This document shows positions 16,553-62,663 of a DNA stretch of 64,000 nt, piece by piece; positions within the stretch are counted from its first letter, which is position 1; every line of letters starts with the position of its first letter. This DNA comes from Puniceicoccales bacterium. Lineage in GTDB: Bacteria > Verrucomicrobiota > Verrucomicrobiia > Opitutales > LL51. Under the pieces are notes generated by a model. It made no database searches and had not been told where the DNA came from. It saw only the letters and a program-made list of their open reading frames with translations. The position numbers were made by a program, and so were the translations under genes. The stretch lies in contig JAISXO010000034.1 of the NCBI GenBank assembly GCA_031270475.1, positions 29,491-93,490 of the forward strand, given 5' to 3'.

Positions 16553-17056
16553 ATAAATTTCTAAAAGAACCTAAAAATATTGTCTGCATTTTTTATTAGT
16601 TCCTCTTTTTTCTCAAAGGTAAAAACATCGAAGAATAAAAGGTTATACATTTGTTCCCTAATGGTTTCTTTTCGATTTTACGGAAAAGGTTTGTTTCTCT
16701 CGATATCCAAATATTCCCGAAACCCACTAGCGAACATAGCAATCATCCTCTAAAACATTTCTAATTTCATTTTTCATTTTAGGGGAGATATTTGGCGACT
16801 CATAAATTTCTAAAAGGACCTAAAAGCATTGTCTGTATTTTTTATTAGTTCCTCTTTTTTCTCAAAGGTAAAAACATCGAAGAATAAAAGGTTATACATT
16901 TGTTCCCTAATGGTTTCTTTTTGATTTTACGGAAAAGGTTTGTTTCCCTCGATATCCAAATATTCCCGAAACCCACTAGCGAACATAGCAATCATCCTCT
17001 AAAACATTTCTAATTTCATTTTTCATTTTAGGGAAAATATTTGGCGACTCATAAAA
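16553..17056. repeat. tandem duplication, 2 x ~249 bp
   Basis: 16553-16801 and 16802-~17056 are near-identical by eye, with a few substitutions or indels. Each unit contains the 3' end of a minus-strand open frame (...PKMKNEIRNVLEDDCYVR*) plus ~170 bp downstream. Confidence 0.9.
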
Positions 17057-17263
17057 TTCTTCTAGTTGGTACATAGCGTTTGCTCTTTCCTTAGGCGGGA
17101 GAACATAGTTTTTTACATTTCCCAGGCATTTGCGACACTTGTTGTCTGCCGCTTGAATTACGAAGTTGTTTAACTTAAATCTTGCTGTTACATGAACTTT
17201 TCTAGATCCAAAGGCTTTCCTTCCTAAAACTTCCCCAGTATCCCCATCCAGAGCAGATGTCCT
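16976..17263 (-). pseudogene. start-less 95-codon open frame (gene remnant?)
   Basis: The frame is open from the TAA at 17264-17266 to the TAG at 16976-16978: RTSALDGDTGEVLGRKAF...NKCRKCLGNVKNYVLPPKERANAMYQLEEFYESPNIFPKMKNEIRNVLEDDCYVR. The first ATG is at codon 64. No family recognised. Confidence 0.3.
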
Positions 17264-17351
17264 TTAATATTAGCAAGTATGTTCGTAGTACCAGTAGGAT
17301 ATAAAAATAAACAAATACATCAAATTTGTTTTATATATTAAATTTTTTTCT

Positions 17352-18476
17352 TTATTCCAAGGCATTAAAAATTTCTTTAGCGATGGCATCGCAGAGAAGG
17401 CGTCCTCGCTGCGTTAGTCGAACCCGTGAATCCTCTCGAATGAGTAATGCTTCGTTGTAAAGGTCATGAAAAAATTCAGCAAGCCGTTCGTGATGAGGAT
17501 TTTTCTCGAGATCTACGCCATCGTTCATCCGGAGACCGAAAATAATTTCATCAATGGCTAACATTTGCTTATTTAATTTCACAACATCCGTCCGCTCTGG
17601 AATGCCATTTTCGATTCCCGTAGCCCAGCGATCGAGGGAGGCAACATTGGTGTAACGCAGCTCGCCATATTGGCTGCTCGCCGATGGCCCGATTCCAATC
17701 CACTCGTGCATAAGCCAGGTGTTGCGATTGTGCACGGACGCATAGCCATTTTTGCAAAAGTTGGAAATTTCGTATTGTTGGTAGCCGTGGGTTTCGAGGA
17801 ATTCGCAAACTATTTCGTAAAAATCATGGTCGCGATTTTCTTCGGCTCCGTCGCCAAGCCGATTTTTTAATACTGTCCCGTCTTCGTAGGAGAGGCAGTA
17901 GGTTGAAATGTGTTCTGGAGAAAGGGCGATCGCTGTGGATAAATCATCAAGCAATTGGTTGTTAGTTTGGCCCGGTGCGGAAAAAATGAGATCAATGCCA
18001 ACGTTGGTAAAACCCGTTGAGCGGACAAGTTCATAGGCGTGAAAAATTTGTTGAAGCGTCTGTTTGCGGCCAAGTGTGCGGAGCATTACCCCGTTAAAAC
18101 TTTGTATGCCCATCGAAATGCGATTGACACCGGCGGCTTTCCAATGCTGTAATTTTTCCATATTGACCGTACTGGGCGCGATTTCCAGAGTCCACTCCAG
18201 AGGCATTTTATGTATTTTAGAATGCAATGTTGTAGCAATTTGATCGATGACTTTGGGCGATAAAATTCCCGGAGTTCCGCCTCCAAAATAAATCGTATCA
18301 AAGGCGCGTTCGTCGTGAATGAATTGTATTTCCAGGAGAAGTGCATGCAAATAACATTCGAGATTTTGTCGGGATGGTGGTTCCTTATAGAAGGCGCAAT
18401 AGTCACATTTTGCCGCGCAAAACGGAACGTGTACGTATAAACCCAGCGGTATATAAACTTTTTCTTGCCTATTCAT
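17352..18476 (-). CDS. hemW: radical SAM HemN-family protein (heme chaperone HemW-like)
   Basis: 374 aa. CxxxCxxC cluster motif in VPFCAAKCDYCAF and GGGTP motif. Length fits HemW rather than HemN. Confidence 0.8.
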   Translation of the reverse strand: MNRQEKVYIPLGLYVHVPFCAAKCDYCAFYKEPPSRQNLECYLHALLLEIQFIHDERAFDTIYFGGGTPGILSPKVIDQIATTLHSKIHKMPLEWTLEIAPSTVNMEKLQHWKAAGVNRISMGIQSFNGVMLRTLGRKQTLQQIFHAYELVRSTGFTNVGIDLIFSAPGQTNNQLLDDLSTAIALSPEHISTYCLSYEDGTVLKNRLGDGAEENRDHDFYEIVCEFLETHGYQQYEISNFCKNGYASVHNRNTWLMHEWIGIGPSASSQYGELRYTNVASLDRWATGIENGIPERTDVVKLNKQMLAIDEIIFGLRMNDGVDLEKNPHHERLAEFFHDLYNEALLIREDSRVRLTQRGRLLCDAIAKEIFNALE

Positions 18477-18502
18477 CGGTCCATAATTATGTTACCCACA
18501 AC

Positions 18503-19474
18503 ATGAATTGGTTATTGCGCATCGGTAAAGTTTTTTTCATAACGGGTTTACTTTTTTTGGTCGGTTGCGACGGTAATAATATTTGTAATATGACGCCGAA
18601 TGTTATCACTCAAAATCAGTCAAATATCTATACCCTTACTGTGGCTGTCCGCGGTCTGAACAATGGCATCGTGCGGAAAAATATCAAGCCCTACGTGGTC
18701 GTCAACGGCGAAAAACATGAGATGAAAAAACATCCCGATGGCAATAATATGTTCGTTTATGACTATCATTTCAATGGCATCGGAACAATTCCATACTATT
18801 TTGAAGTGGTTTATGTCGGTACTCGCAATGGTATTCCTCGGGAGAAAATTGCGAAATCTGATCTGTTTAGTACGGCGGTGACGGATAAATATATTTTTGC
18901 TTTGAATGCTAATCGCGGACCGGTCGGTGCAACGGTGAATATCGTCGGCTATGGTTTGACTCGGGCGGATAAGGTGCGCTTTGGAGGACGTACCCTATCC
19001 GCAAATTGGCTGTCCTCCGGTGCCATTGAATTTGTCGTCCCTTCCGTGGAATGCGATAGTGAGTACGAAGTATATCTGCTTACGAACCGAAAGGAACTTT
19101 TGGCAGGAACATTCTTTGTGGATGAATCGGTCTTGCATTGCAGTACGGACTTTATTCGCCTCGCCAATGGCGAAAGTCAACGCCTTGTGTTTATGATCGA
19201 TCACCCTGCCCAGGAAGATGGCGTCGAAGTCGAAATTACAACCGATATTCCTGATAATATTGTTATGCCGGAAGTACATTTTATGCCCGGTGAACGCACG
19301 GTGAGCGTGAATATTACCGGCGGTGAAGATGCGGCTAAGGGGACACTGTTTGTTCGGGCTAAAGGCTATTCATCGTTGGAAATTCCTTTGGAAATCGGCG
19401 ATGTGGACGCGGAAACTGTCTCTTCCGATTTTCAGTCCGCTCCCGAAGAAAGTGATGATGTCGTCGTCTTGTAA
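18503..19474 (+). CDS. lipoprotein with IPT/TIG-like repeats
   Basis: The internal ATG of ORF 18341..19474 gives MNWLLRIGKVFFITGLLFLVGC (lipobox LVGC). GPVGATVNIVGYGL...VRFGG resembles IPT/TIG. Confidence 0.6.
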   Translation: MNWLLRIGKVFFITGLLFLVGCDGNNICNMTPNVITQNQSNIYTLTVAVRGLNNGIVRKNIKPYVVVNGEKHEMKKHPDGNNMFVYDYHFNGIGTIPYYFEVVYVGTRNGIPREKIAKSDLFSTAVTDKYIFALNANRGPVGATVNIVGYGLTRADKVRFGGRTLSANWLSSGAIEFVVPSVECDSEYEVYLLTNRKELLAGTFFVDESVLHCSTDFIRLANGESQRLVFMIDHPAQEDGVEVEITTDIPDNIVMPEVHFMPGERTVSVNITGGEDAAKGTLFVRAKGYSSLEIPLEIGDVDAETVSSDFQSAPEESDDVVVL

Positions 19475-19517
19475 AATGTGAAATGTTTTTGATTGAGTTC
19501 TTCTTGATGTGTTTTTT

Positions 19518-19977: not shown

Positions 19978-20065
19978 ATAACGGATCAGCGTATAGTTTT
20001 TTCTAAAAGGATACATAAAAAAAGGCGGATTATTCCGCCCTTTTACTTTCAAGTTTTATAAATGA

Positions 20066-24327: not shown

Positions 24328-25821
24328 CTATTCGAAACGGCCATTTTCCACGTGTACGAGCTCCCAGAGGCGGTAGCGTTGACTACCTTTGATAAAAATA
24401 TTTCCCTGAATTTTCCTTTGAAAGATTGCCTTTATTCGTTCTATTTCTTCGCCATAGAAAATTGTTAACGTTCCGGCGATTGCCTTTAATCGATTACAAA
24501 AAATTTTCATTTCTTCTCCGACGGCGAAAATTATTACGTTTTTTTTATTAAAAAAATATTCCGCCAGAACTTCATGATAATTTTGTGAGAATTCTCCCAA
24601 CTCGCGCATTCCGCCCAGGACGTAGGTATTATCGCCGGGGTATTTTTGATCAAAAAATTGCAGTGCGTCCATCATGGCAACTGGATTTGCGTTGTAGCAG
24701 TCGAGGTAAACTTCACGGCCTTGGAAATAGATTGTTTCGCCCCGCAATTTCCCGGGATTCCACAACAAAATACGTTTTTGGATGGTATCGTCGGAGAGTC
24801 CTAAAATTTTTACTGCCGTTGCTGCTTTGGCGAAGTTTTCTTTTTGCCCGGCGCTCATTTCCGGAAATCTGAAGGTGGTGCCATCGAAATAGGTTCCATG
24901 TAGCGTGATTTTATTTTCTTCCGTGGATTTCTTTTCTTTTGGGAATTGGAAGTGGGACCAGTTTTGGTGACTTTCTTTTTGATCGCTACTCATTTCCGGT
25001 GCCGTAAAAGTAGCTCCCGCGGAATAAGTTTCCTGCAAAGTGAATTTCTTTTCTTCCGTAGATTGATTTTTTTTGCCGCATTGGAAGTGAGTAAAGCGAG
25101 GGAAATGCGAAATGTTTTTCCCTTGACCAATGACGATACATTGAGCGGCGAGTCGGCGGAACGGCATATACCCAAGGCAACTTTCCGGAATGATCCCAAT
25201 TTTTTTGCGTGCGATAGTATTTTCTAAAATTTTGCATTTTTCATTGACAAGCTGTTCAAAATTCGTAAAATTCGCGATATGTGTGAGTGTGATCCCAATT
25301 GTAATAGAGATTTCTGGTTCGACTAAATCGATGATGCGATCCATTTCGCCAGGGTGGTCGATTCCGCCCTCGATAACGCCGAAACGCTGGGATTTCATGT
25401 GACTGAGCGTGAGTGTAACGCCGAGTTCATTGTTGAGATTTTCGCGTGTTCCGTAGGCGTCGTCGGCGAGCAGGAGTTTGAGCATATCTTTTGTGGAAGT
25501 TTTGCCGTAGCTGCCGGTGATAGCGATGATGGTATAACTTTTCCGGTGAATTTTTGCGAGTGTTCTAGCGGCTTCGAGAACGTCAGGGACGCGGAGTTGA
25601 GGCAGGGTGAGATTTTTATTGATCCGGTTAACGAGAGCGCAGCTTGCTCCATTTTGTTGGGCGTGAGCGAGAAAATCGTGACCATTCCGTTGGGCGGTGA
25701 GGGCAAGGAAACAATCGCCGGGTTGGAGGGTTCGCGTATCGTTCCAGAAGCCGTTAATTTCGTTCGGAAGCTGGCCATAAAACTCTATTTCTGGCAACCG
25801 TTGAAAGAGGGTTGTCTCCAT
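24328..25821 (-). CDS. murF: UDP-N-acetylmuramoyl-tripeptide--D-alanyl-D-alanine ligase, with an internal 45-aa duplication
   Basis: 497 aa. ITGSYGKTSTKDML Mur-ligase P-loop. Order of N-terminal, central and C-terminal domains is typical of MurF. Confidence 0.85.
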   Translation of the reverse strand: METTLFQRLPEIEFYGQLPNEINGFWNDTRTLQPGDCFLALTAQRNGHDFLAHAQQNGASCALVNRINKNLTLPQLRVPDVLEAARTLAKIHRKSYTIIAITGSYGKTSTKDMLKLLLADDAYGTRENLNNELGVTLTLSHMKSQRFGVIEGGIDHPGEMDRIIDLVEPEISITIGITLTHIANFTNFEQLVNEKCKILENTIARKKIGIIPESCLGYMPFRRLAAQCIVIGQGKNISHFPRFTHFQCGKKNQSTEEKKFTLQETYSAGATFTAPEMSSDQKESHQNWSHFQFPKEKKSTEENKITLHGTYFDGTTFRFPEMSAGQKENFAKAATAVKILGLSDDTIQKRILLWNPGKLRGETIYFQGREVYLDCYNANPVAMMDALQFFDQKYPGDNTYVLGGMRELGEFSQNYHEVLAEYFFNKKNVIIFAVGEEMKIFCNRLKAIAGTLTIFYGEEIERIKAIFQRKIQGNIFIKGSQRYRLWELVHVENGRFE

Positions 25822-25964
25822 AATGGTGGTAGTATAAATTAACGGAAAAAGGGAAGCGATAAAATTTTTTTCGAGTTAATCATTGATTCGGTTAGCGAGA
25901 GCGCAGTTTGCGTCATTTCGTTGTGCATGAGCAAGAAAAATTATAATTCGAGAATAAAAAGCAC

Positions 25965-26081: not shown

Positions 26082-27458
26082 TTATATATATCGCCGCACG
26101 TTTGCCGACGGAATCGCAAGGAACGTACGATATTTAGTCACGGTTCGTCGAGCAATCCAAATGCCTTCATTTTGAAGTATTTGGGCGATTTTTTCATCGC
26201 TGAGCGGTTTGTTTTTGTTTTCATTTTTGATAATATTTTTAATACTCTCTCGGAGCGTGTTTTGTGCGATGAGGGAGCCATGATTACCGTGGGAAAAAAA
26301 GAAATCCAGCGGAATAATTCGATGTGGAATTTGAACATATTTATTTTTGACAGCCCGGGAAAGTGTTGTGGAGTGGATTTCGAGGCATTCCGCCACTTGT
26401 TTTTGACTCTGCGGACGAAGAAAATCACTGCCATTTTCTAGGAAGTCGCTTTGAAATTTCAAAATATATTCGGCAATTTTTTGTAAAGTTTCCCGGCGCT
26501 TGTGCAGCATCTTAACCAAAAATTGGGCTTGTTGTTTGTTCTCGGTAAAAAAATTACGGTCTTCGCGCTTTGATGAATGGGTAAACATCCTTAGGTAAAG
26601 GTCATTTATACGAATTTCCGGTGCACCGCGAACTTCGCAGCTCCAATGGCCGTCAATTTTTTGGAAAATAATTTCTGGAACAATCGCCGGATTGGCGTTG
26701 GGCATAATCGTTTTGAGCGGTGCAAAATTTAGCAATTTCAAGGGCACCAAAAGTGTACGCAATTCGGATGCCGTCTTACATAATTTTCTCCGCAATTTAG
26801 CGAATCGGCGATGCTCGAGGTCATCGAAATAGTGTGCAACGAGGTCATGGAGCGGCGTATTTTCCGGAATTTGCAACCGAAAGCAATCCTGCAAATCATG
26901 GGCACCAATCCCCTTCGGCGAAAGCGATCGCAATATCGCATAGGCTGTTTCAAAAACATTTTGCCGCGCATCGTCGGTCCGCGCATCGCAATTTTCCTCG
27001 CCATCCGGCCAAGAAATCCCGTACTGCTGAGCCGCATCCTCTGGCAAAAATCCGCGATCATCGAGGCTATTAATTAGCGTCGTCAGTGCCGTTTTTGTCG
27101 CCTCGTCCAAATCGGGAACCTGGGCGAGGAGGTAATCCTCAGGTGAATCTTCGGCACTAATATTTTCTAAAAAATTTGGATTGCTTTCTTCGTTATTTGG
27201 TATATCGCTCGTGCGCGCGCGCGCGCTCATATTAATAGTACTTTCCTTACTTGCACTCGCTGGAAAGCCGTAGGGAGCCGTGTCGGCGATGTCGAGAAGG
27301 GGGTTGCGCTGAATTTCCGCAGCAATGAGCCGGTAAAGTTCCTCGGTCGGCAATTGCAAAATGTCCAGAGAACGGAGCATGGACGGAGATAGTCGTTGGC
27401 TTTGAATTTGTAGGCGATCGTTCCTTAGGTCCACGGCGTAAGCATGGAGAGATACCAA
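26082..27458 (-). CDS. rpoN: RNA polymerase sigma-54 factor
   Basis: 458 aa. Gln/Leu-rich region I, HTH region, and RpoN box ARRTVTKYR near the C-terminus. Confidence 0.95.
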   Translation of the reverse strand: MVSLHAYAVDLRNDRLQIQSQRLSPSMLRSLDILQLPTEELYRLIAAEIQRNPLLDIADTAPYGFPASASKESTINMSARARTSDIPNNEESNPNFLENISAEDSPEDYLLAQVPDLDEATKTALTTLINSLDDRGFLPEDAAQQYGISWPDGEENCDARTDDARQNVFETAYAILRSLSPKGIGAHDLQDCFRLQIPENTPLHDLVAHYFDDLEHRRFAKLRRKLCKTASELRTLLVPLKLLNFAPLKTIMPNANPAIVPEIIFQKIDGHWSCEVRGAPEIRINDLYLRMFTHSSKREDRNFFTENKQQAQFLVKMLHKRRETLQKIAEYILKFQSDFLENGSDFLRPQSQKQVAECLEIHSTTLSRAVKNKYVQIPHRIIPLDFFFSHGNHGSLIAQNTLRESIKNIIKNENKNKPLSDEKIAQILQNEGIWIARRTVTKYRTFLAIPSANVRRYI

Positions 27459-27708
27459 CTTTTTTCAAGAAATGAAGTTAATTTTTGAGGGAATCAATCT
27501 GTGCCAAAAGAATTTCCGCAGCAATGAGCCGGTAAAGTTTCTCGGTCGGCAATTGCAAAATGTCCAGAGAACGGAGCATGGACGGAGATAGTCGTTGGCT
27601 TTGAATTTGTAGGCGATCGTTTCTTAGGTCCACGGCGTAAGCATGGAGAGATACCAACTTTTTTCAAGAAATGAAGTTAATTTTTGAGGGAATCAATCTG
27701 TACCAAAA
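27311..27708. repeat. tandem duplication, 2 x 199 bp, covering the rpoN 5' end and upstream region
   Basis: 27311-27509 and 27510-27708 differ at only a few positions by eye. The distal copy holds an rpoN start codon at 27657 and 49 identical or near-identical codons. Confidence 0.9.
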
Positions 27709-29087: not shown

Positions 29088-29505
29088 AACTTTCCATTAA
29101 ATTTATTTATTTATTTTGTTTTTGGCGCCGAGTTTTTGGAGATCGTCGCATTGGGAGAAAAGGCCGCCGCGGCCGTTAATTTTCGGAATAATTTTATCAT
29201 CAAACTGCTCGTGCACCTTGCCAAAGAGCTTGTACAGTTCGCGCAATTCGTCAAGCAATCCACAAAATTTATCGTACAATTTTCCACTGAGGCCGGGTCA
29301 ACTTTCCATTAAATTTTCTTTTTTAATTGATTTTTTATTTTTGGCGCCGAGTTTTTGGAGATCGTCGCATTGGGAGAGAAGGCCGCCGCGGCCGTTGATT
29401 TTCGGAATAATTTTATCATCAAACTGCTCGTGCACCTTGCCAAAGAGCTTGTACAGTTCGCGCAATTCGTCAAGCAATCCACAAAATTTATCGTACAATT
29501 TTCCG
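29088..29505. repeat. tandem duplication, 2 x ~212-219 bp, covering the rmuC 3' end and the rmuC-serS junction
   Basis: 29088-29299 and 29300-~29505 are near-identical apart from an AT-rich indel patch. Both copies end (minus strand) with ...TTAATGGAAAGTT(A/G)A, encoding LMES-stop. Confidence 0.9.
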
Positions 29506-30608
29506 CCGCGATCGGCAATTTCCTGTGCATTGAGGTTTTGTTTTTCGACCTGCCAAATCGCTTGAATCAGTCTCAGTGTCAAAAATAGCGTGGAAGGATA
29601 AACAATAATTACATTTTTCTGACGAGCGTATTCACAGATATCTTTTTTATGGGCCGAGGGATTGGAGACGACGCTCGCGTAGGCCGATTCGATGGGTAAA
29701 AACATCAGTAAAAATGGGCAAATATCGATGGCATTTTTAATTTGGTGGTATTTGGCTACTTCGTCGATGTGTTTTTGAATGGAGGCAATATGTTGCTGGA
29801 AAAACCGTTCCCGTTCCTGGGGGTCGGGGGTATTGACCATGCGTTCGTAGGCGGAAAGGGAGACCTTTGCATCGATCAAAATCCACTGATTGCGCGGGAG
29901 TTTGATGAGGAAATCCGGTCGAGCGGCTCCGTCATCGATCTTCAATTCGAGCCCCCTCCCTTGCTTGACATAGTCGCCATTTTCTTCAGATAGCCCGGCC
30001 TGCTCGAGGAGATTTTCCAGTTGAACCTCGCCCCAATCTCCCTGAATCTTCGCGTTATTGCGCAGGGCATTGGTCAAATTTTCGGCTTCGTTATGCATTT
30101 TTTCCACGCTGTCGAGGAGCGATTTGAGGTGGATCGACAGTTCCGTGCGCGATTTTGTTTCCGGAGAGAAAATTTCGGTTTTGAAGGTAGAGAATTCTTT
30201 TTGGAGATCGACGATAAGGTGGCCGATTTCCTTTTGTGTCTCCTCGGAAAATTTTTGTTTTTTGGCTTCTAGAATTTCCTGGGAGAGGCTGGAGAGCTCG
30301 AGTTTGAGTTGCTCTCGATGTTTGAGGATTTCGCTACGAGCGGTTTCGATAGCAATTTTTTCACCGGAGAGCCGTTGAAAATTTTCAAAAAGCTGATTGA
30401 ATTCCTGAGTTTTCTGTAAAAACTGCGCTTCAATGGCGGATAATCTCCCTTGTAATTCGGCCTTTTGCGTGGCGATTTCGGTGAAGCGCTCTTGGATATC
30501 CTTGAGTTGTGCAGCCAATGCGTTACATTCACTGCGATATTTATTAGCAAAATAGCAGATAATTCCTAGGAAAAACCCACAAGAAATAAGACACAGCGCA
30601 ATGATCAT
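29298..30608 (-). CDS. rmuC: DNA recombination protein RmuC
   Basis: 436 aa. N-terminal TM helix, long coiled coil, and RmuC nuclease-like C-domain (RPDFLIKLP..., IDAKVSL). Confidence 0.9.
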   Translation of the reverse strand: MIIALCLISCGFFLGIICYFANKYRSECNALAAQLKDIQERFTEIATQKAELQGRLSAIEAQFLQKTQEFNQLFENFQRLSGEKIAIETARSEILKHREQLKLELSSLSQEILEAKKQKFSEETQKEIGHLIVDLQKEFSTFKTEIFSPETKSRTELSIHLKSLLDSVEKMHNEAENLTNALRNNAKIQGDWGEVQLENLLEQAGLSEENGDYVKQGRGLELKIDDGAARPDFLIKLPRNQWILIDAKVSLSAYERMVNTPDPQERERFFQQHIASIQKHIDEVAKYHQIKNAIDICPFLLMFLPIESAYASVVSNPSAHKKDICEYARQKNVIIVYPSTLFLTLRLIQAIWQVEKQNLNAQEIADRGGKLYDKFCGLLDELRELYKLFGKVHEQFDDKIIPKINGRGGLLSQCDDLQKLGAKNKKSIKKENLMES

Positions 30609-30935
30609 GACAAAATATTATCTAAACCGCCAAAGAAATTTATTCAAATCCAAAAAATTTCCCCCAAAAAAGCTTGACATTAATTAAAAGCGCTGAAATA
30701 CTTGCTGCCAAGCGCTCTTGGATATCCTTGAGTTGTGCAGCCAATGCGTTACATTCACTGCGATATTTATTAGCAAAATAGCAGATAATTCCTAGGAAAA
30801 ACCCACAAAAAATAAGACACAGCACAATGATCATGACAAAATATTATCTAAACCGCCAAAGAAAATTATTCAAATCTAAAAAAAAATCCCAAAAAAGCTT
30901 GACATTAATTAAAAGCGCTGAAATACTCGCTACCA
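30484..30935. repeat. tandem duplication, 2 x 226 bp, covering the rmuC 5' end and the divergent promoter region
   Basis: 30484-30709 and 30710-30935 are near-identical. ORF 30640..30834(-) is the decoy rmuC 5' fragment; its first 41 aa match RmuC closely. Confidence 0.9.
30899..30927 (+). promoter_or_regulatory. candidate sigma70-type promoter (a duplicate sits at ~30673-30701)
   Basis: aaaaaagcTTGACA (30899-30904), 17 nt, AATACT (30922-30927). Lies 11 nt upstream of ATG 30938. Confidence 0.5.
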
Positions 30936-34611: not shown

Positions 34612-34820
34612 TTTTTCTCAGATCAATAAATTATATCCGCAAAATTTATCAAGAAAGATAGGCCGTCGATTTGCAATTTTCTATGACATTCATATTTATT
34701 TTATATTTTTAGGCGAAATTTACGAACAATTTTTCCAAAATGCTTCCAAGGGTATTGTCATTTAATATTTCGTCTTTAGAAAAGCGTTATTTTCTCTGGT
34801 ATAATCCCTAGCCACCTAAC

Positions 34821-34915
34821 TTCTTTCAATGTATTGTAAAGCGCCAGAGATAGACGAATCGTTCCGCCAATGCCGAGCGCATGCATCAACGAATTACGCA
34901 TAGTGATATCCGGTG
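34821..34915 (-). pseudogene. displaced partial copy of the sufS 3' region
   Basis: 34821-34915 matches sufS 35077-35172 with an offset of 256 bp. The first ~80 bp are highly similar by eye and the rest is weaker. It lies beyond the sufS stop codon. Confidence 0.75.
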
Positions 34916-35010
34916 TTTTCGGTCACTCAAAGTTTTTTAAATGGAATTCACGGAGAATAAAATTGCTAGAAAATTAAATCGAACGTGGGCGATAGGCGGG
35001 CGGTGCATTG

Positions 35011-36234
35011 TTATCGATGGGAATTTTTCTTAAAAATATGGATAATTTTGTCCATGGCAGTGACCAGTTGCTCAATTTCTTCCAATGTGTTGTAAGGCGC
35101 CAGAGATAGACGAACCGTTCCGCCAATGCCGAGCGCATGCATCAACGGTTGCGCACAGTGATGCCCGGCTCGTACCGCAATTCCCTCGCTATCAAATATA
35201 CTGGCCACATCGTGGGGATGCGCGGATCGATGAATGAATGAAATAATTCCCGTTCGCTGATTGTTCGGCTTGAGAACCTCAATGGACGAATTTTGTCCCA
35301 AAATTTCCAAAACATGCCCCTTGAGTCCCTCGCCATATCTTTGTGCCTCAATCCAATCTATCTTCCCGAGAAATCGAATCGCTTCCCGTAGCCCCGTAAC
35401 TCCAACAACATTCGGCGTACCTGCTTCAAAACGAGTAGGAATCTCGCGGAATAAGGCCGGTTGATCGAAGGCTACGCGATCGACAATCCCTCCGCCTAAG
35501 TGGTACGGCTGAAAATGCTCCAGGTGTTCGGCGCGGCCATAGAGAAATCCAATTCCCATCGGCCCAAAAGCCTTGTGCGCGGAAGTTGCAAAGAAATCAC
35601 ACTCCATCTCCCGTACATCAATCGGTCCGTGTCCCAATGATTGCGCGCCATCGACGATGCAAAGCGCTCCAACCCTATGCGCCATCTGGGCAATTTTTTT
35701 TATCGGATTAATCGTCCCTAAAACGTTTCCAATGTGCGCAATGGAAACAATCCGCGTGCGCTCCGAAAGCTTGTGCCCAAAATCATTCCCGTCGAAATCG
35801 CCCGCTTCCGTCATCGATACAATGCGAATCGTCGCCCTAAGCCGCTGCCATGGAAGAATATTAGCGTGGTGTTCCTGGACAAATAAAATAATTTCATCTT
35901 CCGTTGTGAGAGATGCGAATTGGGATGCTAGAAAATTGATGCCTTCCGTCGTCCCCGAATTGAGAATGATTTCCCGTGGCTCGCGAGCGTTGATCCAATG
36001 GGCGATTTCTCGGCGTGTAGACTCGTAAATTTCCTCGGCCTTCGCACTGAGATCATATATCCCGCGGTGGACGTTAGCGTTAGTTGTGCGCAGATGGTAG
36101 GCCATTGCTCCGATGACACGCTCCGGTAATTGAGTTGTGGCCGCGTTATCGAAGTAAATCAGAGGCTTTTCAAAACGATTGTGACCACTTAAGATCGGGA
36201 ATTCCTGGCGAAAGGCGTGAACATCGAAACTCAT
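35011..36234 (-). CDS. sufS: cysteine desulfurase (SufS/CsdA class V aminotransferase)
   Basis: 407 aa. HHANILPWQ, SAHKAFGPMGIG (PLP lysine) and RAGHHCAQP motifs. Confidence 0.9.
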   Translation of the reverse strand: MSFDVHAFRQEFPILSGHNRFEKPLIYFDNAATTQLPERVIGAMAYHLRTTNANVHRGIYDLSAKAEEIYESTRREIAHWINAREPREIILNSGTTEGINFLASQFASLTTEDEIILFVQEHHANILPWQRLRATIRIVSMTEAGDFDGNDFGHKLSERTRIVSIAHIGNVLGTINPIKKIAQMAHRVGALCIVDGAQSLGHGPIDVREMECDFFATSAHKAFGPMGIGFLYGRAEHLEHFQPYHLGGGIVDRVAFDQPALFREIPTRFEAGTPNVVGVTGLREAIRFLGKIDWIEAQRYGEGLKGHVLEILGQNSSIEVLKPNNQRTGIISFIHRSAHPHDVASIFDSEGIAVRAGHHCAQPLMHALGIGGTVRLSLAPYNTLEEIEQLVTAMDKIIHIFKKNSHR

Positions 36235-36366
36235 AGCGAGATTTGTCTAGCCCTTTAGAATTTTTTACCGTTGTCAAGCTTTTTTATTTTTTAGTGTTAT
36301 TCCCGTGGATGAATTCCCATCCCGAAGATATGATAAATAACAGTTCAGTGTGTGGCGGAAAATTTT

Positions 36367-36426
36367 ACGCGCCGCTTGCTCCCACCCTCTACCTTCCAGT
36401 CTTGAAAGAATTTCAGGACCTATCAA
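36367..36426 (-). promoter_or_regulatory. promoter-like module with conserved motif (faces sufS)
   Basis: The minus strand reads CTTGATA (36426-36421), 17 nt, AAGACT, 5 nt, GTAGAGGGTGGGAGCAAGCGGCGCGT. Lies 133 nt upstream of the sufS ATG. Confidence 0.55.
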
Positions 36427-36478
36427 GTCGTTTCTGAAAAGATAATTTTCAAAAATAAAAATATTTTGTATTTTCTTC

Positions 36479-36506
36479 TTGACATAATTCATAAAATCGC
36501 GACAAT
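36479..36506 (+). promoter_or_regulatory. candidate promoter of the pilin-like gene
   Basis: TTGACA (36479-36484), 16 nt, GACAAT (36501-36506). Divergent from the module at 36367-36426. Confidence 0.45.
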
Positions 36507-36628
36507 CGCTTCATGATTGATTTGCAAAGCAACAAAGCGTAAAAAGTAAAAGTAAATCTTTTACGTTAGTTGAGATTGTTTTTACTATTGCCATCATCGG
36601 CATTTTACTAGCCATTCTTCCGCCGGCA

Positions 36629-37330: not shown

Positions 37331-37335
37331 AAATT

Positions 37336-37613
37336 TTCACGTGCCGCTTGCTCCCACCCTTGAAAGAATTTCAGGGCCTGTCAAGTCGTTTCTGAAAAGA
37401 TAATTTTCAAAAATAAAAATATTTTGTATTTTCTTTTTGACATAATTCATAAAATCGCGACAATCACTTTATGGTCGATTTGCAACGCAACAAAGCGTAA
37501 GGAGCAAAAGTAAATCTTTTACATTGATTGGAATCGTTTTTATTATTGCCATCACCGGCATTTTACATGCCGCTTGCTCCCACCCTTGAAAGAATTTCAG
37601 TGCCTGTCAAGTG
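37336..37613. repeat. second copy of the divergent-promoter / pilin 5' segment, flanked by two short-form modules
   Basis: 37336-37567 matches 36365-36608. Short modules at 37339-37384 and 37565-37610 (minus) read TTGACA, 17 nt, AAGGGTGGGAGCAAGCGGCA(C/T)GT, which is a 13-nt deletion relative to the long form. Confidence 0.85.
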
Positions 37614-37854
37614 ATTTTTTTGGAATTATTAATACTAGCTTCGTCATTTGGATTTCTAGTATCGGTGAAAGTTGAAATAAATCGCCAGGAATACCTTGAA
37701 AAACTGATATCTACTTTCCCTCTTTGAAAAAACCGGACCTCTGCCAAGTGATTTTTTGAAAATAAATCAATAAAAAATAACAAAACATTGATAGATTGCG
37801 TTTCCAGTTTCCAAAAAGTAATTCCCGGAATTTTTATTTATACTTTGACAATAA

Positions 37855-39054
37855 TTGCCGAAAAATACGTTTATTCCCATGGACGCGCTCGTCAAACTCG
37901 TCGACGGTATCGATACAATTGTTGGACAGGAGTCCCTATCGGAACGCCTATCGCAAAAAAAAATCCTGAAAGTGAAACTTGGTGTCGATCCAACTCGCCC
38001 CGATTTGACCTTTGGCCATATGGTCGTTTTCAATAAATTGCGCCAGTTTCAGGATCTCGGCCACGAAGCAATTTTGCTGATCGGCGACCATACTGCTACC
38101 ATTGGCGATCCTTCCGGTCGTTCTTCGACGCGCCCGGTGTTGACTACCCAAGAGGTCGACCAAAATGCCAAAACTTACCTCGAGCAGGCCTTCAAAATTA
38201 TCGATCCCGAGAGGACGACGATTCGGCGCAATAGCGAGTGGTTTCGAAGGATGACGTTCGACGATATGCTCATTATTGCCCGTAAAATGACGGTTGCGCG
38301 GATGCTTGAGCGGGACGATTTTGCGAAACGCTACCGCGAAAATGAGCCCATTTCCATTGTCGAGTTTTTATATCCTTTGATGCAGGGGTATGATTCGGTC
38401 ATGCTCGAAGCCGACGTCGAGCTTGGCGGAACGGATCAATTTTTCAATTTATTGGTTGGCCGCGCGCTCCAAAGGGATTATGGCCAGCGGGAGCAGATTG
38501 TCATCACGATGCCGCTCATCGTCGGTCTTGATGGGAAGCGTAAAATGTCAAAAAGTTACGATAATTACATTTCATTTAACCATTCTTCAAAGGATATGTT
38601 TGGGCGGATCATGTCGATTCCGGACGAAGTGATGTGGACCTATTTCAAGTTATTATTGGAGTATTCTGACGGGGCGATCGAGGCGTTGAAGGGGGGGCAT
38701 CCCATGGATGCGAAAAAATTTTTGGCTCGATCGTTGGTGGCGCGATTTTACGGTCCAGAAGTCGGGGAGCAAGAGTTAGCGGATTTTGAGGCGGTATTTT
38801 CGCATGGAGAAATCCCGGAAGCGATGCCGGAATTTTCGTTACAAGCGATGGCAAAGGATCCGGTTACTTTAGCCGACGCGATGGCATATTCGCAATTTTT
38901 TGAAAGCAATCGAGAGATTCGCCGACTCATTGAGCAAGGAGCTGTCAAAGTTAATGGGAAGAGTGAAAAGAATTTTAAGTTTCCTTTACGATCCGACCGC
39001 TGTCCCCATGTCATTCAGTCTGGCAAGCGCATATTTTTAAAAGTTATTCCGTAG
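37855..39054 (+). CDS. tyrS: tyrosyl-tRNA synthetase
   Basis: 399 aa. Class I motifs (TFGHMV HIGH-like, KMSKS). C-terminal S4-like domain (IRRLIEQGAVKVNG). Alternative start at 37879. Confidence 0.9.
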   Translation: MPKNTFIPMDALVKLVDGIDTIVGQESLSERLSQKKILKVKLGVDPTRPDLTFGHMVVFNKLRQFQDLGHEAILLIGDHTATIGDPSGRSSTRPVLTTQEVDQNAKTYLEQAFKIIDPERTTIRRNSEWFRRMTFDDMLIIARKMTVARMLERDDFAKRYRENEPISIVEFLYPLMQGYDSVMLEADVELGGTDQFFNLLVGRALQRDYGQREQIVITMPLIVGLDGKRKMSKSYDNYISFNHSSKDMFGRIMSIPDEVMWTYFKLLLEYSDGAIEALKGGHPMDAKKFLARSLVARFYGPEVGEQELADFEAVFSHGEIPEAMPEFSLQAMAKDPVTLADAMAYSQFFESNREIRRLIEQGAVKVNGKSEKNFKFPLRSDRCPHVIQSGKRIFLKVIP

Positions 39055-39505
39055 AAAATAATTAGTGCGTTTATGGCTAATTATTTTTTGCATTATCGCA
39101 GTCGAAAAATTATTTTTTTGTAACGGCGATATATCTTTAAATAGATTTTGAGGCGGTATTGCACACAGAGAAATTGAAAAAAAACAAAAAGGATTTTAAG
39201 ATTCCTTTATAATTCGACCGCTGTCCCCATATTATTCAGTCCGGCAAGCGCATATTTTTAAAAGTTATTCCGTAGGAAATAATTAATGTGTTTACGGTTA
39301 ATTATTTTTTGCATTATCGCAATCGAAAAATTATTTTTTTGTAACGGCGATATATCTTTAAATAGATTTTGAGGCGGTATTGCACACAGAGAAATTGAAA
39401 AAAACAAAAAGAATTTTAAGATCCTTTTACGATTCGACCGCTGTCCCCATGTCATTCGGTCTGGCAAGCGCATACTTTTAAAAGTTATTCCGTAGGAAAA
39501 TGATT
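38972..39505. repeat. tandem repeat, ~2.4 x ~221 bp, reiterating the tyrS 3' end
   Basis: ATTTTAAG...CGACCGCTGTCCCCAT...GGCAAGCGCATA..TTTTAAAAGTTATTCCGTAG recurs at 38972, 39193 and 39413. The units also carry AGATTTTGAGGCGGTATT, which matches tyrS at ~38785. Confidence 0.85.
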
Positions 39506-39545
39506 AATTTATTTACAATTGAATCTTTTTTTTTACACTAATGCA

Positions 39546-47043: not shown

Positions 47044-47668
47044 ATTTTTTTTGTATTACGAATTGTTGATGTTTTTTTTATTCTGTTCGGGGTGTACACT
47101 TTTCAAGACGACTCCCGATCGGACGCGTCTATTTGACATTGGATTTCGGGGGACGCAATCGGCGATGTCTTCGGTAGACAGTGCAAAAATTTGTCTTATT
47201 TTGGGGAGTTTTCCGGATTATCTCGATGGATCACCGATCATCACGAAGATTGGTGAGCATGAATTGAAAAATAATCCGCGCTATCGTTGGGCCAAACCGC
47301 TTTCGGAAACGATTCTTTACATTGTAAAACGCAGTATTTTGCAAAGTTTTTCGAAAGTTTACGTCTATGAATTCCCCAAAGATACCATGGATAAGATTGA
47401 TTTTACGCTATGTTTAGACGTCGATGGGCTGGAGATTTGCGAAGTGACGCAGCGGATTATCTTTAAAGGGACGTGGACTTTTTTAGATGCGAAGCAACGG
47501 AATATAACCCATGCTCCATTTGAATTTTGCGAGTCATTTGATGATTTTTCGGATCGTTACGGAGAAATAGTGGCCAAGGTGGAGCAGGTTATCCATCATT
47601 TAGGCGACGCGATTGTAAAGGAAATGGATCTTATTTTTCTAAAAAGAATAACGGGAAATAATCCCTAG
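47033..47668 (+). CDS. ABC-transport auxiliary lipoprotein (PqiC/YmbA-like)
   Basis: MKTRFFLYYELLMFFLFCSGC lipobox. Its position directly after an MCE gene is typical. Confidence 0.6.
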   Translation: MKTRFFLYYELLMFFLFCSGCTLFKTTPDRTRLFDIGFRGTQSAMSSVDSAKICLILGSFPDYLDGSPIITKIGEHELKNNPRYRWAKPLSETILYIVKRSILQSFSKVYVYEFPKDTMDKIDFTLCLDVDGLEICEVTQRIIFKGTWTFLDAKQRNITHAPFEFCESFDDFSDRYGEIVAKVEQVIHHLGDAIVKEMDLIFLKRITGNNP

Positions 47669-47958
47669 CAAGCCGTTTGGGATGCGTTTAAAAGAAGAAG
47701 AGAATATTAGTGGAGAGAGGCGTCGCATTTCTTTTTTTGATATGAATGATAGAAATAAGAAGAAATAGTGGCCAAGGAGGAGCAGGTTATCCATCATTTA
47801 GGCGACGCGATTGTAAAGGAAATGGATCTTATTTTTCTAAAAAAAATAACGGGAAATAATCCCTAGCAAGCCGTTTTGGATGCGTTTAAAAGAAGAAAAG
47901 AATATTAGGGGAGAGGCGTCGCATTTCTTTTTTTGATATGAATGATGGAAATAAGAAG
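47563..47958. repeat. tandem duplication, 2 x 198 bp, spanning both 3' ends of a convergent gene pair
   Basis: 47563-47760 and 47761-47958 are near-identical. The junction reads gatAGAAATAagaAGAAATAgtgg, with AGAAATA microhomology. Confidence 0.9.
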
Positions 47959-49224
47959 ACTGATTGCGGAACCTAAAAGAAGAATACGCGTCAAAATAAA
48001 ATATGAACCAAAACTCTTTTGAGAATAACTGAACGCCGATGGCGCAATGGCGGCAAAAAGAGAGACGATCAGTGCCACGCTAGACATGATGTGCCCAAGG
48101 TGTTTCCGGCCAAAAAGTTTGGGCCAAGGCGCCGCAGAGGCGATTCCGTAAAGCGACCAGTTAAATCCACACAAGCAAATAAAAGGCCATAATCCCCACG
48201 ATTGGCAAACGTTTTCTAAAAAAAACATCAGAGCCGCATTGGTCGAAAAAATTGCGAGTAAACAGCAGCGAATTGAAGATCGATCCTGAAGAATACTGAA
48301 TAGAACTCCCGCAATCGCGCTGACTACGGCGGCAAATGGAAAAATGTTCAGTGGATTGGCAGTGCAGGCGTGGGCCTCGCGAAAAATATCGACGATGTGA
48401 ATCTCTAAACCCGTTGAAGTAAAAGTCGACGTCGAAACCGCTAGAACAAAAATCCAAAAATCAAAGGTACCAAGTGCCTGACGCAACGTGTAGTCGCGCG
48501 CAACAATTGGATGATCACTGTTGTTTTTTAATCCATCTCGATTGCTGCCAACCGACTGAGGATTGTCGCGACATAGGGCCCAAATAAAAGGAAGCATTAC
48601 CAAAAGAATAATGAGGCCTTGCGCCATCCAAGCCGTGAGGTAGCCCAATTCTTCGATTAAACGGTGAATAATCTTCGGCGCACAACCAAAGGTAATGGAA
48701 ACAAAAATACCGGAAATGCCAATCATGGTGCAACTTCTTTTATCGTACCACTGGAGAAGCATCATGCGACTGGCGAGCGGGATGAGGTTTTGTCCGCATA
48801 GTTTTAGTAAAAAAAGTCCCGGGAAAAGTATGCAAGTAACGGCGACAAAGTGCGAGGTACAGCCTTCCACCGAGGCGATGGCAGAAGCGATGTGGCCCAT
48901 GAAAAGCAGTGTTAATCCCAGCATTAATGTGGCATAGGTAACGGCTCGACGAATTCCGATGCGGTCAAAAAGTGTGCCTAAAAGTGGCAGTAACAGGGCA
49001 CTGAGCAGGGTCGCGAAGAAAAAAATATTACTGAAATGATTGCGAGAAATGTGTAAATTTTGAATGAGTTCTTCCGTAAAGGGGCAAAGGCCGACGCTAT
49101 GGCCAGGAATACTAATCATTCGCGCGCAAAGAGAGGTAAAAAAGATGACCAAACCGTAAAAAAATGGTACACGCTTTGGAGCAAAGGGAAAATTTGGGGC
49201 AAAAATTTTCGATTTTTTCGACAT
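47905..49224 (-). CDS. MFS transporter
   Basis: 439 aa, ~12 predicted hydrophobic helices, and an MFS motif-A-like LGTLFDRIGIRR. Confidence 0.75.
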   Translation of the reverse strand: MSKKSKIFAPNFPFAPKRVPFFYGLVIFFTSLCARMISIPGHSVGLCPFTEELIQNLHISRNHFSNIFFFATLLSALLLPLLGTLFDRIGIRRAVTYATLMLGLTLLFMGHIASAIASVEGCTSHFVAVTCILFPGLFLLKLCGQNLIPLASRMMLLQWYDKRSCTMIGISGIFVSITFGCAPKIIHRLIEELGYLTAWMAQGLIILLVMLPFIWALCRDNPQSVGSNRDGLKNNSDHPIVARDYTLRQALGTFDFWIFVLAVSTSTFTSTGLEIHIVDIFREAHACTANPLNIFPFAAVVSAIAGVLFSILQDRSSIRCCLLAIFSTNAALMFFLENVCQSWGLWPFICLCGFNWSLYGIASAAPWPKLFGRKHLGHIMSSVALIVSLFAAIAPSAFSYSQKSFGSYFILTRILLLGSAISLLISIIHIKKRNATPLP

Positions 49225-56007: not shown

Positions 56008-56067
56008 ACATGCCGCTTGCTCCCACCCTCTACTCTCCAGCCTTGCCGCACTTTTTATTGTTGTCAA
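56008..56067 (-). promoter_or_regulatory. promoter-like module with conserved motif (faces recD2)
   Basis: The minus strand reads aaaaaaaCTTGACA (56067-56062), 17 nt, AAGGCT, 5 nt, GTAGAGGGTGGGAGCAAGCGGCATGTAAAAAA. Confidence 0.55.
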
Positions 56068-57504: not shown

Positions 57505-57564
57505 TTGACAGGTATTGAAATTCTTCCAAGTTTGAAGGGTAGAGGGTAGGAGCAAGCGGCATGT
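57505..57564 (+). promoter_or_regulatory. promoter-like module with conserved motif, orphan copy
   Basis: aaaaaaacaaCTTGACA (57505-57510), 17 nt, AAGTTT, 5 nt, GTAGAGGGTAGGAGCAAGCGGCATGTGAAAAA. The next gene (mnmE) is convergent. Confidence 0.5.
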
Positions 57565-59343: not shown

Positions 59344-59521
59344 AAAGGCTGCGCGTCCTTAGGATCCGTGAGAGGGAAGCTATTCCCGGAGCTGCCCCGC
59401 GGCGAAGCCGCGGGGGCAGCCAGCCTTCGGCCGAGCCCGGCCCTTCGGGCCGGGCTCGGCCGTCCAATGAGGTCAAGAAGTTGAGACTCCTTGCGGAGGT
59501 CTGGTCTGGGCGGAGCCCTTT
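59344..59521. repeat. GC-rich multi-hairpin element, variant copy C5
   Basis: Hairpins GGGAA-gcta-TTCCC, GCTGCCCCGCGGC-gaa-GCCGCGGGGCAGC (59391-59420), GGCCGAGCCCGGCCC-ttc-GGGCCGGGCTCGGCC (59429-59461) and GACTCC-ttgc-GGAGGTC. Flanked by AAAGGCT...AGCCCTTT. Confidence 0.75.
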
Positions 59522-60698: not shown

Positions 60699-60802
60699 AT
60701 GTAATCGAAATTGTAATCCTGTTTTGAAAAGGAAATTATTCTTCGAAAATGTTTTGCAATGGAAATTATTTTTTTATAAATAGCTGTCCATAGTGTGCTA
60801 TT

Positions 60803-61102: not shown

Positions 61103-61126
61103 ATTTATATCGCTGTTCGGCGGGCT

Positions 61127-61214
61127 GGGGCAAAAGCCGCGCGCAAAGCGCGCAAGGCCTGGGGCGAAGCCCCAGGCCTTTCAAGGAGCCTTCGGCTCCT
61201 TGGGCTTTTGCCCC
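61127..61214 (+). repeat. cloverleaf element, copy C6
   Basis: Outer stem GGGGCAAAAGCC / GGCTTTTGCCCC encloses GCGCGC-aaa-GCGCGC, AAGGCCTGGGGC-gaa-GCCCCAGGCCTT and CAAGGAGCC-ttc-GGCTCCTTG. Confidence 0.9.
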
Positions 61215-61272
61215 AAGGTCCATCGCCCGATAAATTCTTGCGAAAATCCGAGGACTTCTTTTACCCTTAGTC

Positions 61273-62364
61273 ATGTTACGGGCAGGAATTGTAGGATTAC
61301 CGAATGTGGGAAAGAGCACATTATTCAACGCATTGACGCGCACTCGCAAGGCTCAGGCGGAGAATTATCCCTTTTGCACCATCGATCCGAACATTGGCGT
61401 TGTCGAAGTCCCCGATGAGCGCCTAGCCATTTTAAAGCCCATTGCCAAGACGGAAAAACTCGTACCGGCGGCGATAGAAATAGTGGACATAGCGGGTCTC
61501 GTAGCGGGGGCGAATCGGGGCGAGGGATTGGGTAATAAATTTCTTGGAAACATTCGAGAGGTCGATGCAATTATACATGTAGTACGCTGTTTTGAGGACG
61601 GCGATATTATTCACAGTTCTGGGGGAATTGATCCGATACGCGACATTGAAATTGTCAATACGGAGCTCATTTTAGCGGACCTACAATCCATAGAAAATCA
61701 GCTCAATAAAAACATCAAAAAATCTCGGGCAAATGATGCGGAAGCGATTCGAGCCGTCGAGTTATTGCAGCATTTGGAGGAGCATCTCAACGGAGGAAAT
61801 CCGGCCAATACCTTGGAAATGGGCGATGAGGAAAAACTTTTATTAAAGTCGTTCAATTTGCTTTCTTCCAAGCCGGTGATTTACGCCTGTAACGTGGCGG
61901 AGGGGGAAATTAGTAATATATTTACGGAGCGGGTCGCAGTCCATGTGCGGTCCATGCATCATGCGGAATGTTGCATCATTTGTGCCCAATTGGAATCGGA
62001 TTTGGTTGATTTTTCCGCGGAGGAAGCGCGGACGTATCTCCTCGATTTGGGGGTTAAAGACAGCGGTGTATCGGATTTAATAGGGGCGACTTACCGTTTA
62101 CTAGGGCTTGCTTCCTATTTTACGGCCGGGGAGATGGAAGTTCACGCGTGGACGTTCAAAGTGGGCATGAAGGCACCCCAATGTGCTGGTATTATCCACG
62201 GCGATTTTGAGCGTGGATTTATTAAGGCGGAGGTGGTGAGCTATGAAGATTTGGTTGCGGCGGGATCGTTTGTTGCGGCAAAGGAAGCGGGTAAATATCG
62301 CCTCGAGGGAAAAGAATATGAAGTTAGGGATGGCGATGTGATTATTTTTCGTTTTAATGGGTAG
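61273..62364 (+). CDS. ychF: redox-regulated ATPase YchF
   Basis: 363 aa. [18 protein letters not shown] and a C-terminal TGS-like domain ending ...[11 protein letters not shown]. Confidence 0.95.
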
Positions 62365-62370
62365 TTGATT

Positions 62371-62457
62371 GGGGCGAAAGCCCAAGGAGCCGAAGGCTCC
62401 TTGAAGGCCTGGGGCTTTGCCCCAGGCCTTGCGCGCTTCGCGCGCGGCTTTTGCCCC
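62371..62457 (-). repeat. cloverleaf element, copy C7 (inverted copy of C6)
   Basis: It is the reverse complement of C6 apart from about 3 differences. Outer stem GGGGCGAAAGCC / GGCTTTTGCCCC (one G-T pair). Starts 7 nt after the ychF stop. Confidence 0.9.
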
Positions 62458-62560
62458 ATTCCGCCCGCACCGCGGCATAATTCAGGGTTCGGATTTGTTT
62501 GTGCCTGGGGTTATTGTGAAAGCAATCAGAGATTTAGTTAGGGCGGGATTATTTGTTAGA

Positions 62561-62663
62561 GCGAGGGAGGCGAACAAATATTGCCTCAAAGGAATATTGC
62601 CTCAGAGGAAAAGAATATGAAGTTAAGGATGGCGATGTAATTATTTTTCCTTTTAATAGATAA
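62561..62663 (+). pseudogene. decayed duplicate of the ychF 3' end abutting the lpxB start
   Basis: 62561-62663 aligns with ychF 62277-62364: ...AAATAT(T/C)GCCTC...GAAAAGAATATGAAGTTA(A/G)GGATGGCGATGT(A/G)ATTATTTTTC(C/G)TTTTAAT... It carries an internal 16-bp duplication and ends 2 nt before the lpxB ATG. Confidence 0.8.

Follow-up and report, generated by a model that had tools for sequence, protein, structure and literature searches.

Dense, size-restricted tandem duplications at gene ends in a 64-kb window of a Puniceicoccales genome

The 64,000-nucleotide stretch of a Puniceicoccales bacterium analysed here (contig JAISXO010000034.1, positions 29,491 to 93,490; hereafter the window) carries near-tandem direct repeats at 11 loci, which correspond to 12 events per 64 kb, and at nine of these loci the repeated unit straddles the end of a gene. 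We propose that the repeats are real, lineage-specific tandem duplications of ~135-265 bp, that they arose by recurrent illegitimate joining in what is putatively an endosymbiont of flagellates, and that those which passed the filter of selection went on to decay neutrally; we consider this explanation probable. The termite Opitutales families LL51, to which the genome belongs, and UBA9783 have small, low-GC genomes and are established or putative endosymbionts of gut flagellates (PMC11257099). In literature searches we found no description of dense, size-restricted gene-end tandem duplications in bacteria, these bacteria included.

Density and length of the duplications

Repeats were sought in the window with Tandem Repeats Finder (TRF), by BLAST of the sequence against itself (self-BLAST), and with a diagonal scan that took every offset from 40 to 600 at a threshold of at least 42 matches in 60. 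Every instance listed in a preliminary description of this DNA was recovered by these methods, at or a few bases from the position it gave. The 11 loci are listed below; the displaced copies lying near the ends of murF, sufS and ychF had been called echoes, and we keep the term.

16553..17060 (no strand): two tandem copies of 249 bp, 16553-16801 and 16802-17050, 96.5% identical (TRF, self-BLAST)
24838..25107 (-): murF internal in-frame duplication, 2 x 135 bp (45 codons), ~68-70% nucleotide identity
25609..25939 (-): murF 5' echo, 25609-25675 versus 25873-25939, offset 264 bp, 81% identical
27311..27708 (-): two tandem copies of 199 bp at the rpoN 5' end, 98.5% identical (TRF, self-BLAST)
29088..29504 (-): rmuC 3'-end duplication, offset 212/219 bp, 93.7% identical (self-BLAST)
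30484..30935 (-): two tandem copies of 226 bp at the rmuC 5' end, 95% identical (self-BLAST)
34767..35168 (-): sufS 3' echo, redundant copy 34767-34913 (147 nt) versus 35023-35168, offset 256 bp, 77% identical
37335..37617 (+): 226-bp unit (promoter and pilin-like 5' end) that starts again at 37561 and runs for a further 57 nt
38966..39516 (+): tyrS 3' array, 2.5 x 221 bp, ~91% identical (TRF, self-BLAST)
47563..47959 (no strand): two tandem copies of 198 bp across a convergent gene pair, 96.5% identical (TRF, self-BLAST)
62188..62662 (+): ychF 3' echo, gene segment 62188-62363 versus redundant copy 62474-62662, 66% identical

How unusual is this density? The identical diagonal scan was applied to 160 kb from close relatives, namely loci L001-L010 and L091-L096 of termite-gut Puniceicoccales/Opitutales metagenome-assembled genomes (MAGs). 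These relatives were reached through RmuC, TyrS and HemW, the closest being termite-gut Puniceicoccales MAG contigs with names of the form k119_...; a metagenome scan with TyrS returned only relatives at no more than 65% identity, which served as a background set. One comparable event was found, an acpS 3' echo in L009 at an offset of 128. The window has 11 loci in 64 kb against this one in 160 kb. The density is thus ~30-fold above that of sister lineages assembled by the same pipeline, and the excess is lineage-specific; the frequency, for which the preliminary description had sought a mechanism, is abnormal. It implies a raised rate of formation, weak removal, or both. In 972 kb of distant Verrucomicrobia loci the same scan gave 10 arrays, mainly multi-copy protein repeats. 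The Poisson probability of at least 11 loci lies between 6e-8 and 7e-13.

In the L009 case a 45-nt sub-terminal acpS segment recurs 128 nt downstream, past the stop codon (20055-20139 versus 20183-20267), so the duplication process is not fully absent from the sister lineages. Other repeats in the relatives (L003, L009 at 5535, L091, L092, L094, L095 and L096) were considered as gene-end duplications and rejected; they are tRNA paralogues, a dispersed conserved motif, REP-like (repetitive extragenic palindromic) arrays or protein repeats. In the spacers of the window microsatellites have not proliferated: TRF gave just four arrays, all of them short, at periods of 15-30 bp. Since an Rfam scan returned one tRNA only, none of the repeats is a known RNA gene.

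The lengths are as distinctive as the density. In the diagonal scan the 11 loci have offsets of 135, 198, 199, 219, 221, 226, 226, 249, 256, 264 and 283/299, and the repeat periods of 135-264 bp have a mean of 217, a standard deviation of 35 and a coefficient of variation of 0.16. The scan found no repeat in the window with an offset of 40-134 or 300-600, both ranges being detectable, and given an even spread over 40-600 bp the probability that all 11 periods fall inside 135-264 bp is ~1e-7. The tight preference for ~200-260 bp is therefore real; the preliminary description had put the narrow range at ~200-290 bp.

We note that GC skew is positive in 28 of 32 2-kb bins and that cumulative skew climbs from 0.10 to 2.71 over the window. 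The whole window consequently lies in one replichore, with the plus strand leading, and all the events come from that replichore.

Age, polarity and placement of the copies

Copy identity across the events falls from 98.5% to ~66% and forms an age series, within which tyrS is a two-step array. The pair at 98.5% is the rpoN duplication, whose unit comprises 148 nt of coding sequence and 51 nt upstream; 27311-27509 lies in the intact gene and 27510-27708 is redundant. The unit at 47563 covers the 3' ends of two convergent genes, an ABC_trans_aux lipoprotein gene (ending at 47668, plus strand) and an MFS transporter gene (ending at 47905, minus strand), both of which remain intact. The 16553 event lies entirely within an 842-nt non-coding spacer between a rsmD-like gene (ending at 16509) and the convergent hemW (ending at 17352). 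This AT-rich spacer, 16510-17351, corresponds to 18 nt in the syntenic relative L096; it still holds ~590 nt of extra sequence once the 249-bp duplication is collapsed, and nucleotide and translated comparison found no similarity to the flanking genes.

Both ends of rmuC are duplicated. At the 3' end the gene copy (29300-29504) is followed by a 12-nt filler, CCCGGCCTCAGT (29286-29297), and then by the redundant copy (29088-29285), which has lost 7 nt and retains the ancestral TAAAATTATG junction to serS. At the 5' end the unit consists of the entire divergent-promoter spacer and the first 123 nt of rmuC; its outer edge comes within 2-3 nt of the point (~30938) where a divergent secreted-protein gene has its start codon, and the event doubled TTGACA-N17-AATACT promoter matches, now found at 30674 and 30899. 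That divergent gene, of 468 aa, itself contains an in-frame 30-bp tandem repeat (31625-31682, 1.9 copies), a small-scale duplication tolerated within a gene. In the tyrS array three copies record two events. The unit takes in the final 89 nt of tyrS and the spacer behind it; copy 1 supplies the end of the intact gene and copy 2 carries an internal stop. The restart at 37561 is ambiguous. A 7-nt repeat, ATTTTAC, is present at the junction as the preliminary description had pointed out, and the restart could be a tandem duplication, or else an insertion or copy of a dispersed element found again at 57571-57414 (-); 37585-37703 matches 57530-57414 (-) at 79% by self-BLAST.

At the old end of the series, the murF, sufS and ychF echoes are decayed tandem duplications. 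The murF echo is a 67-nt copy of codons ~49-71 that lies upstream of the murF start codon; it aligns with a score of 82, where shuffled sequences reach at most 33, and it was not detected in L009 or L005. The internal murF repeat, old but clear in the protein as a repeat of 45 aa, inserts 51 aa between the middle and the C-terminal domain of the Mur ligase and leaves the open reading frame intact at 497 aa. MurF has 443-461 aa in L009 and L005 and 448 aa in L096, and L009 and L005 align without the insertion. The sufS stop is separated from the redundant copy by 97 nt (34914-35010) with no significant similarity to sufS, the downstream spacer or the rest of the window. The redundant ychF copy (~190 nt) has a secondary tandem duplication of 16 bp nested in it and has remained adjacent to the lpxB start, and a REP-like hairpin cluster (62369-62465) lies directly after the ychF stop, between the two 3' copies. 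This cluster is best read as a later insertion because the element family habitually sits just after stop codons. A tie between the REP-like element and the duplication junctions was considered and rejected; other REP-like copies follow stop codons without flanking duplications.

Comparison with related genomes polarised seven events at six loci (rpoN 5', rmuC 3', rmuC 5', the two tyrS events, the murF internal repeat and the murF echo), and all are derived. The relatives have a single copy at these six loci, so the claim that these are genuine local duplications stands. Eight relatives have 4 nt separating the rmuC stop from the serS ATG, against 216 nt between rmuC and serS here. The region duplicated at the rmuC 5' end is single in six relatives, that at the rpoN 5' end is single in L001, L008 and L096, and the tyrS array is absent from L091-L094, which have one copy, the L091 spacer being 155 nt. 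Flanking genes retain the lengths found in relatives.

Polarity also reveals which copy changes. Comparison with outgroups assigns 25 derived substitutions to redundant copies and 12 to gene copies, and polarisable indel positions are mostly in redundant copies. At rpoN all three differences are derived in the redundant copy, and every polarisable change in the rmuC 3' pair lies in the redundant copy. The redundant copy is therefore the one that decays. It gathers substitutions and indels that shift the frame, and small secondary duplication and REP-like insertion have also contributed.

Where the duplications lie is explained by selection against gene disruption, as the preliminary description had argued. 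The coding fraction of the window is ~86%, and a random unit of 200-250 bp is expected to fall wholly inside one gene in ~70% of cases; one of the 11 loci does so, the in-frame murF repeat (P = 4.7e-5). An event that leaves one complete gene, falls in a non-coding site or lengthens a tolerant linker in frame is neutral and survives. The statement that almost all units straddle a gene boundary holds for nine loci and fails for two, the purely intergenic 16553 event and the internal murF repeat.

Junctions, mechanism and rival explanations

Microhomology at five junctions measures ~10 (imperfect), 7, 3, 1 and 0 nt, and the sixth has the 12-nt filler seen at the rmuC 3' end. The ~10-nt case is the 16553 junction (ATAAATTTCT / ATAAAATTCT), the 7-nt case is 37561, rmuC 5' has 1 nt and rpoN 5' is blunt. 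The 3-nt case is the 47563 event, whose junction, at 47761, has AGA; the longer AGAAATA microhomology proposed for it must be withdrawn, since the copies of that string are 188 nt apart and not 198. Five young junctions are seamless. Junctions with 0-10 nt of microhomology fit slippage, template switching or end joining. Template switching stalled by hairpins was considered and is not supported, the breakpoints being less structured and more AT-rich than average. Self-BLAST found no local inverted duplications in the window and no terminal inverted repeats on the duplicated units, each of which is unique to its own locus. An att-type duplication of a gene 3' end would place an integrated element and its integrase between the copies; here the copies are adjacent, 0-110 nt apart, and the open reading frames scanned against Pfam gave no integrase domain.

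We propose that the duplications formed when sister DNA strands or molecules were joined illegitimately, perhaps during replication, by a template switch ~200 bp back, or perhaps in an end-joining-like repair; the joining would have used 0-10 nt of microhomology and occasionally added filler. Only neutral events then persist, namely those whose unit spans a start or stop codon, falls in a non-coding site or enters a tolerant linker in frame, and decay of the redundant copy turns the older ones into echoes. The lineage may form duplications often, remove them poorly, or both. Several points weigh against this proposal. It is drawn from 64 kb of one contig in a short-read MAG, with support at the level of k-mers and not of reads. 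The 16553, sufS, 47563 and ychF events lie outside the polarised set, and in the case of sufS the relatives do not have the gene at the corresponding position. Slippage predicts more short events than long ones, against an observed peak at ~217 bp with none below 135, and simple slippage yields neither the 12-nt filler at one junction nor the ~100 nt of extra DNA at two.

Does the length peak itself call for a special process? Selection alone would favour longer units and so does not explain it, and a mechanism acting over a fixed distance is plausible. A stronger claim, to which we give a low but appreciable chance, is that a distinct mutational process with an intrinsic scale of ~200-260 bp writes tandem duplications genome-wide, at about one per 6 kb. 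One possible source of such a scale would be unprocessed lagging-strand flaps of Okazaki size, re-incorporated after loss of a flap/5'-nuclease or of a single-stranded-DNA exonuclease; another would be nicks with a constant stagger that are filled in and then joined. The window retains rmuC and a recD2-like helicase.

Alternatively, the duplications might be adaptive or regulatory, kept by selection because they uncouple packed genes or supply extra promoters or terminator-like spacers. Several gene junctions of 2-4 nt have indeed become spacers of more than 200 nt (rmuC-serS, ychF-lpxB), promoters were doubled in several events (rmuC 5', rpoN 5'), and outer breakpoints often lie 0-3 nt from a neighbouring start or stop codon. 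However, the same breakpoint positions are to be expected where purifying selection merely keeps genes and promoters intact, the redundant copies decay freely through frameshifts, deletions and insertions, one event (16553) is purely intergenic, the affected housekeeping genes are unrelated, and the sister lineages keep the compact arrangement. We regard an adaptive origin as improbable.

Could the repeats instead have been made by the assembler, with strain variants or overlapping contig ends of one region set head to tail? The contig appears to derive from the data set of Mies et al. 2024, with NovaSeq 2x150 reads assembled by MEGAHIT at k from 21 to 119 (PMC11257099). The short-read source, a divergence between copies of 1.5-9% that resembles divergence between strains, periods of ~200-260 bp near 2k-1 = 237 at k = 119, and an excess confined to this contig and absent in relatives would all suit such an origin. 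An assembler, however, is blind to genes and would not avoid their interiors. The redundant copies bear frameshifts, stop codons, the nested 16-bp duplication and the 7-nt deletion. Events at 66-81% identity and an in-frame protein repeat at 68% are impossible as strain alleles. Mismatches are distributed over the units, without identical flanking anchors of 118 nt, and a de Bruijn path requires real junction k-mers; the junctions share just 0-10 nt, so they cannot be short-cuts in the graph. Moreover, sister MAG contigs with the same MEGAHIT 'k119_' names do not show the pattern. We therefore think an assembly artefact very unlikely. The longest exact run common to any copy pair is 107 nt, so an assembly at k = 119 can resolve the copies, and the same limit means that younger, near-identical duplications would break contigs and stay unseen. 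Repeats with a period below 118 bp would assemble in every case, which makes their absence a real one, and older large duplications (at most 95% identity) would also assemble, so the upper bound on length is real as well.

Finally, a small non-autonomous insertion process, one of the mechanisms first suggested, would involve a mobile element that inserts with target duplications of ~200 bp through staggered cuts and is then excised. A fixed stagger would account for the narrow size range, and the REP-like cluster exactly between the ychF copies, the filler at the rmuC 3' junction and the ~97 nt of unrelated DNA at the sufS junction could be its traces. This reading is barely credible, given that the units are unique local sequence that recurs nowhere else and has no terminal inverted repeats, that most junctions are seamless with an insert between repeats only at ychF, that the open reading frames scanned against Pfam yielded neither a transposase nor an integrase domain, and that the REP-like copies at 725, 53691 and 61119 follow stop codons without flanking duplications. 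We know of no element with 200-bp target duplications.

Other shared segments and comparison with known systems

Two shared segments that the preliminary description had grouped with the duplications belong to a different phenomenon, being 5'-end patches of paralogues.

36363..36613 (+) versus 37335-37571: promoter and pilin-like 5' unit, 88-91% identical, offset 958-972
4275-4441 versus 6295-6462 (-): hydrolase 5' patch, 168 nt, 95% identical

The pilin unit is a paralogue 5' region and not a tandem event; relatives too have two pilin-like genes with common upstream units (in L092, 2529-2930 matches 3668-4085). The hydrolase patch had been described as 146 nt; it exists, and it extends over 168 nt. 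It covers signal-peptide codons and 57 nt upstream in two tandem secreted Peptidase_S9-like paralogues (2742-6462) that are otherwise 32% identical at the protein level, it has no flanking homology, and it is conversion-like and separate from the tandem duplications.

Several further features of the window deserve mention. In the pilin-like gene (36540-36640, 37500-37570) a prepilin motif, KSFTLVEIVFTIAIIG, lies upstream of the first canonical ATG (36629) and downstream of an in-frame stop, and a short overlapping upstream open reading frame, M(I/V)DLQ(S/R)NKA*, is conserved in both copies; the gene may use a non-canonical start or need a frameshift. An intergenic motif, (TTTTACAT)GCCGCTTGCTCCCACCC(TCTACCTTCCAGCCT...CTGTCAAGT), occurs six times in the window against 0 expected, at 7472-7488(-), 36371-36387, 37343-37359, 37569-37585, 56012-56028 and 57544-57560(-), upstream of pilin-like genes, beside a tRNA-Leu and in convergent spacers. 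It is conserved in relatives (L094 1322-1338, L096 2478-2494), has longer copies of ~160 nt that match one another (37561-37703 versus 57571-57414) and gave no Rfam match; it may serve as a regulatory site or encode a small RNA, or it may be a dispersed element. REP-like clusters of GC-rich tetraloop hairpins, for example GGCCTGGGGC-TTTG-CCCCAGGCC and GCGCGC-TTCG-CGCGCG, are found in AT-rich spacers, typically a few to tens of bases past stop codons, at 725-817, 53691-53738, 59424-59462, 61119-61217 and 62369-62465. Lastly, an MFS transporter gene at 7643-8835 appears to be split or truncated at its N-terminus, with overlapping open reading frames 7643-7924 and 7828-8835 and a Pfam match that begins at profile position 78, and may be a frameshifted pseudogene.

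What do the tandem duplications mean for the genome that carries them? Deletion bias normally keeps bacterial genomes compact, and tandem duplications in them do not as a rule last; in this lineage 200-bp duplications become fixed at about one per 6 kb. The series displays a length-specific insertion process together with the selection that confines structural mutations to gene boundaries, and it shows how a symbiont with a reduced genome comes by new DNA between genes, by spare promoters and by in-frame insertions in proteins. Should the pattern prove genome-wide, a comparison of repair genes with the duplication-poor sisters could tie gene loss to a signature of structural mutation. Should the length-scale process also be true, it would define a new type of genome signature in bacteria, that of a 'duplicator', with a counterpart in the tandem-duplicator phenotypes that some cancers show. 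There are practical consequences as well: young duplications of this size break short-read assemblies and so affect the contiguity and annotation of MAGs, and truncated 'extra' open reading frames can arise beside intact genes.

Defects in flap endonucleases (yeast rad27/FEN1, E. coli Pol I 5'-nuclease mutants) cause a duplication-mutator phenotype with two features in common with our loci: the tandem duplications arise de novo and are bounded by short direct repeats. They are attributed to unprocessed 5' flaps in lagging-strand maturation, a source with an intrinsic length scale; unlike those described here, the reported ones are mostly ~5-100 bp long.

Template-switch amplification in E. coli produces tandem repeats with 4-15 bp of junction homology and units of 7-32 kb (Slack et al. 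2006, PMC1428787). The two systems share de novo head-to-tail repeats and junction homology of a few bases, which points to non-homologous joining and not to recombination between pre-existing repeats. They differ in that the E. coli units are far larger, are selected under stress and are amplified to many copies, whereas the duplications in the window are ~135-265 bp long, mostly in two copies, apparently unselected, evolutionarily fixed and clustered in length.

Organelles offer another parallel. Plant mitochondria (PMC7643612) and the tandem-duplication/random-loss process of animal mitochondria likewise combine organelle-like genomes, relaxed repair and microhomology duplications of which one copy decays, but their replication and repair systems differ, and the abstract of the plant mitochondrial account (PMC7643612) mentions neither a narrow 200-bp class nor a gene-end pattern.

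A further counterpart is Portiera, the whitefly endosymbiont of Bemisia tabaci, in which a lineage-specific change in the indel spectrum coincides with the loss of replication and repair genes (Sloan & Moran 2013, PMC3673631). There, as here, one endosymbiont lineage and not its sisters gained repeats and came to have larger intergenic regions, with indels of a characteristic length. Portiera, however, has 7-bp microsatellites, kilobase-scale rearrangements mediated by repeats and a coding density of 69% (PMC3673631), whereas the window contains units of ~200 bp, mostly in two copies (~2.5 at tyrS), at a coding density of ~86%.

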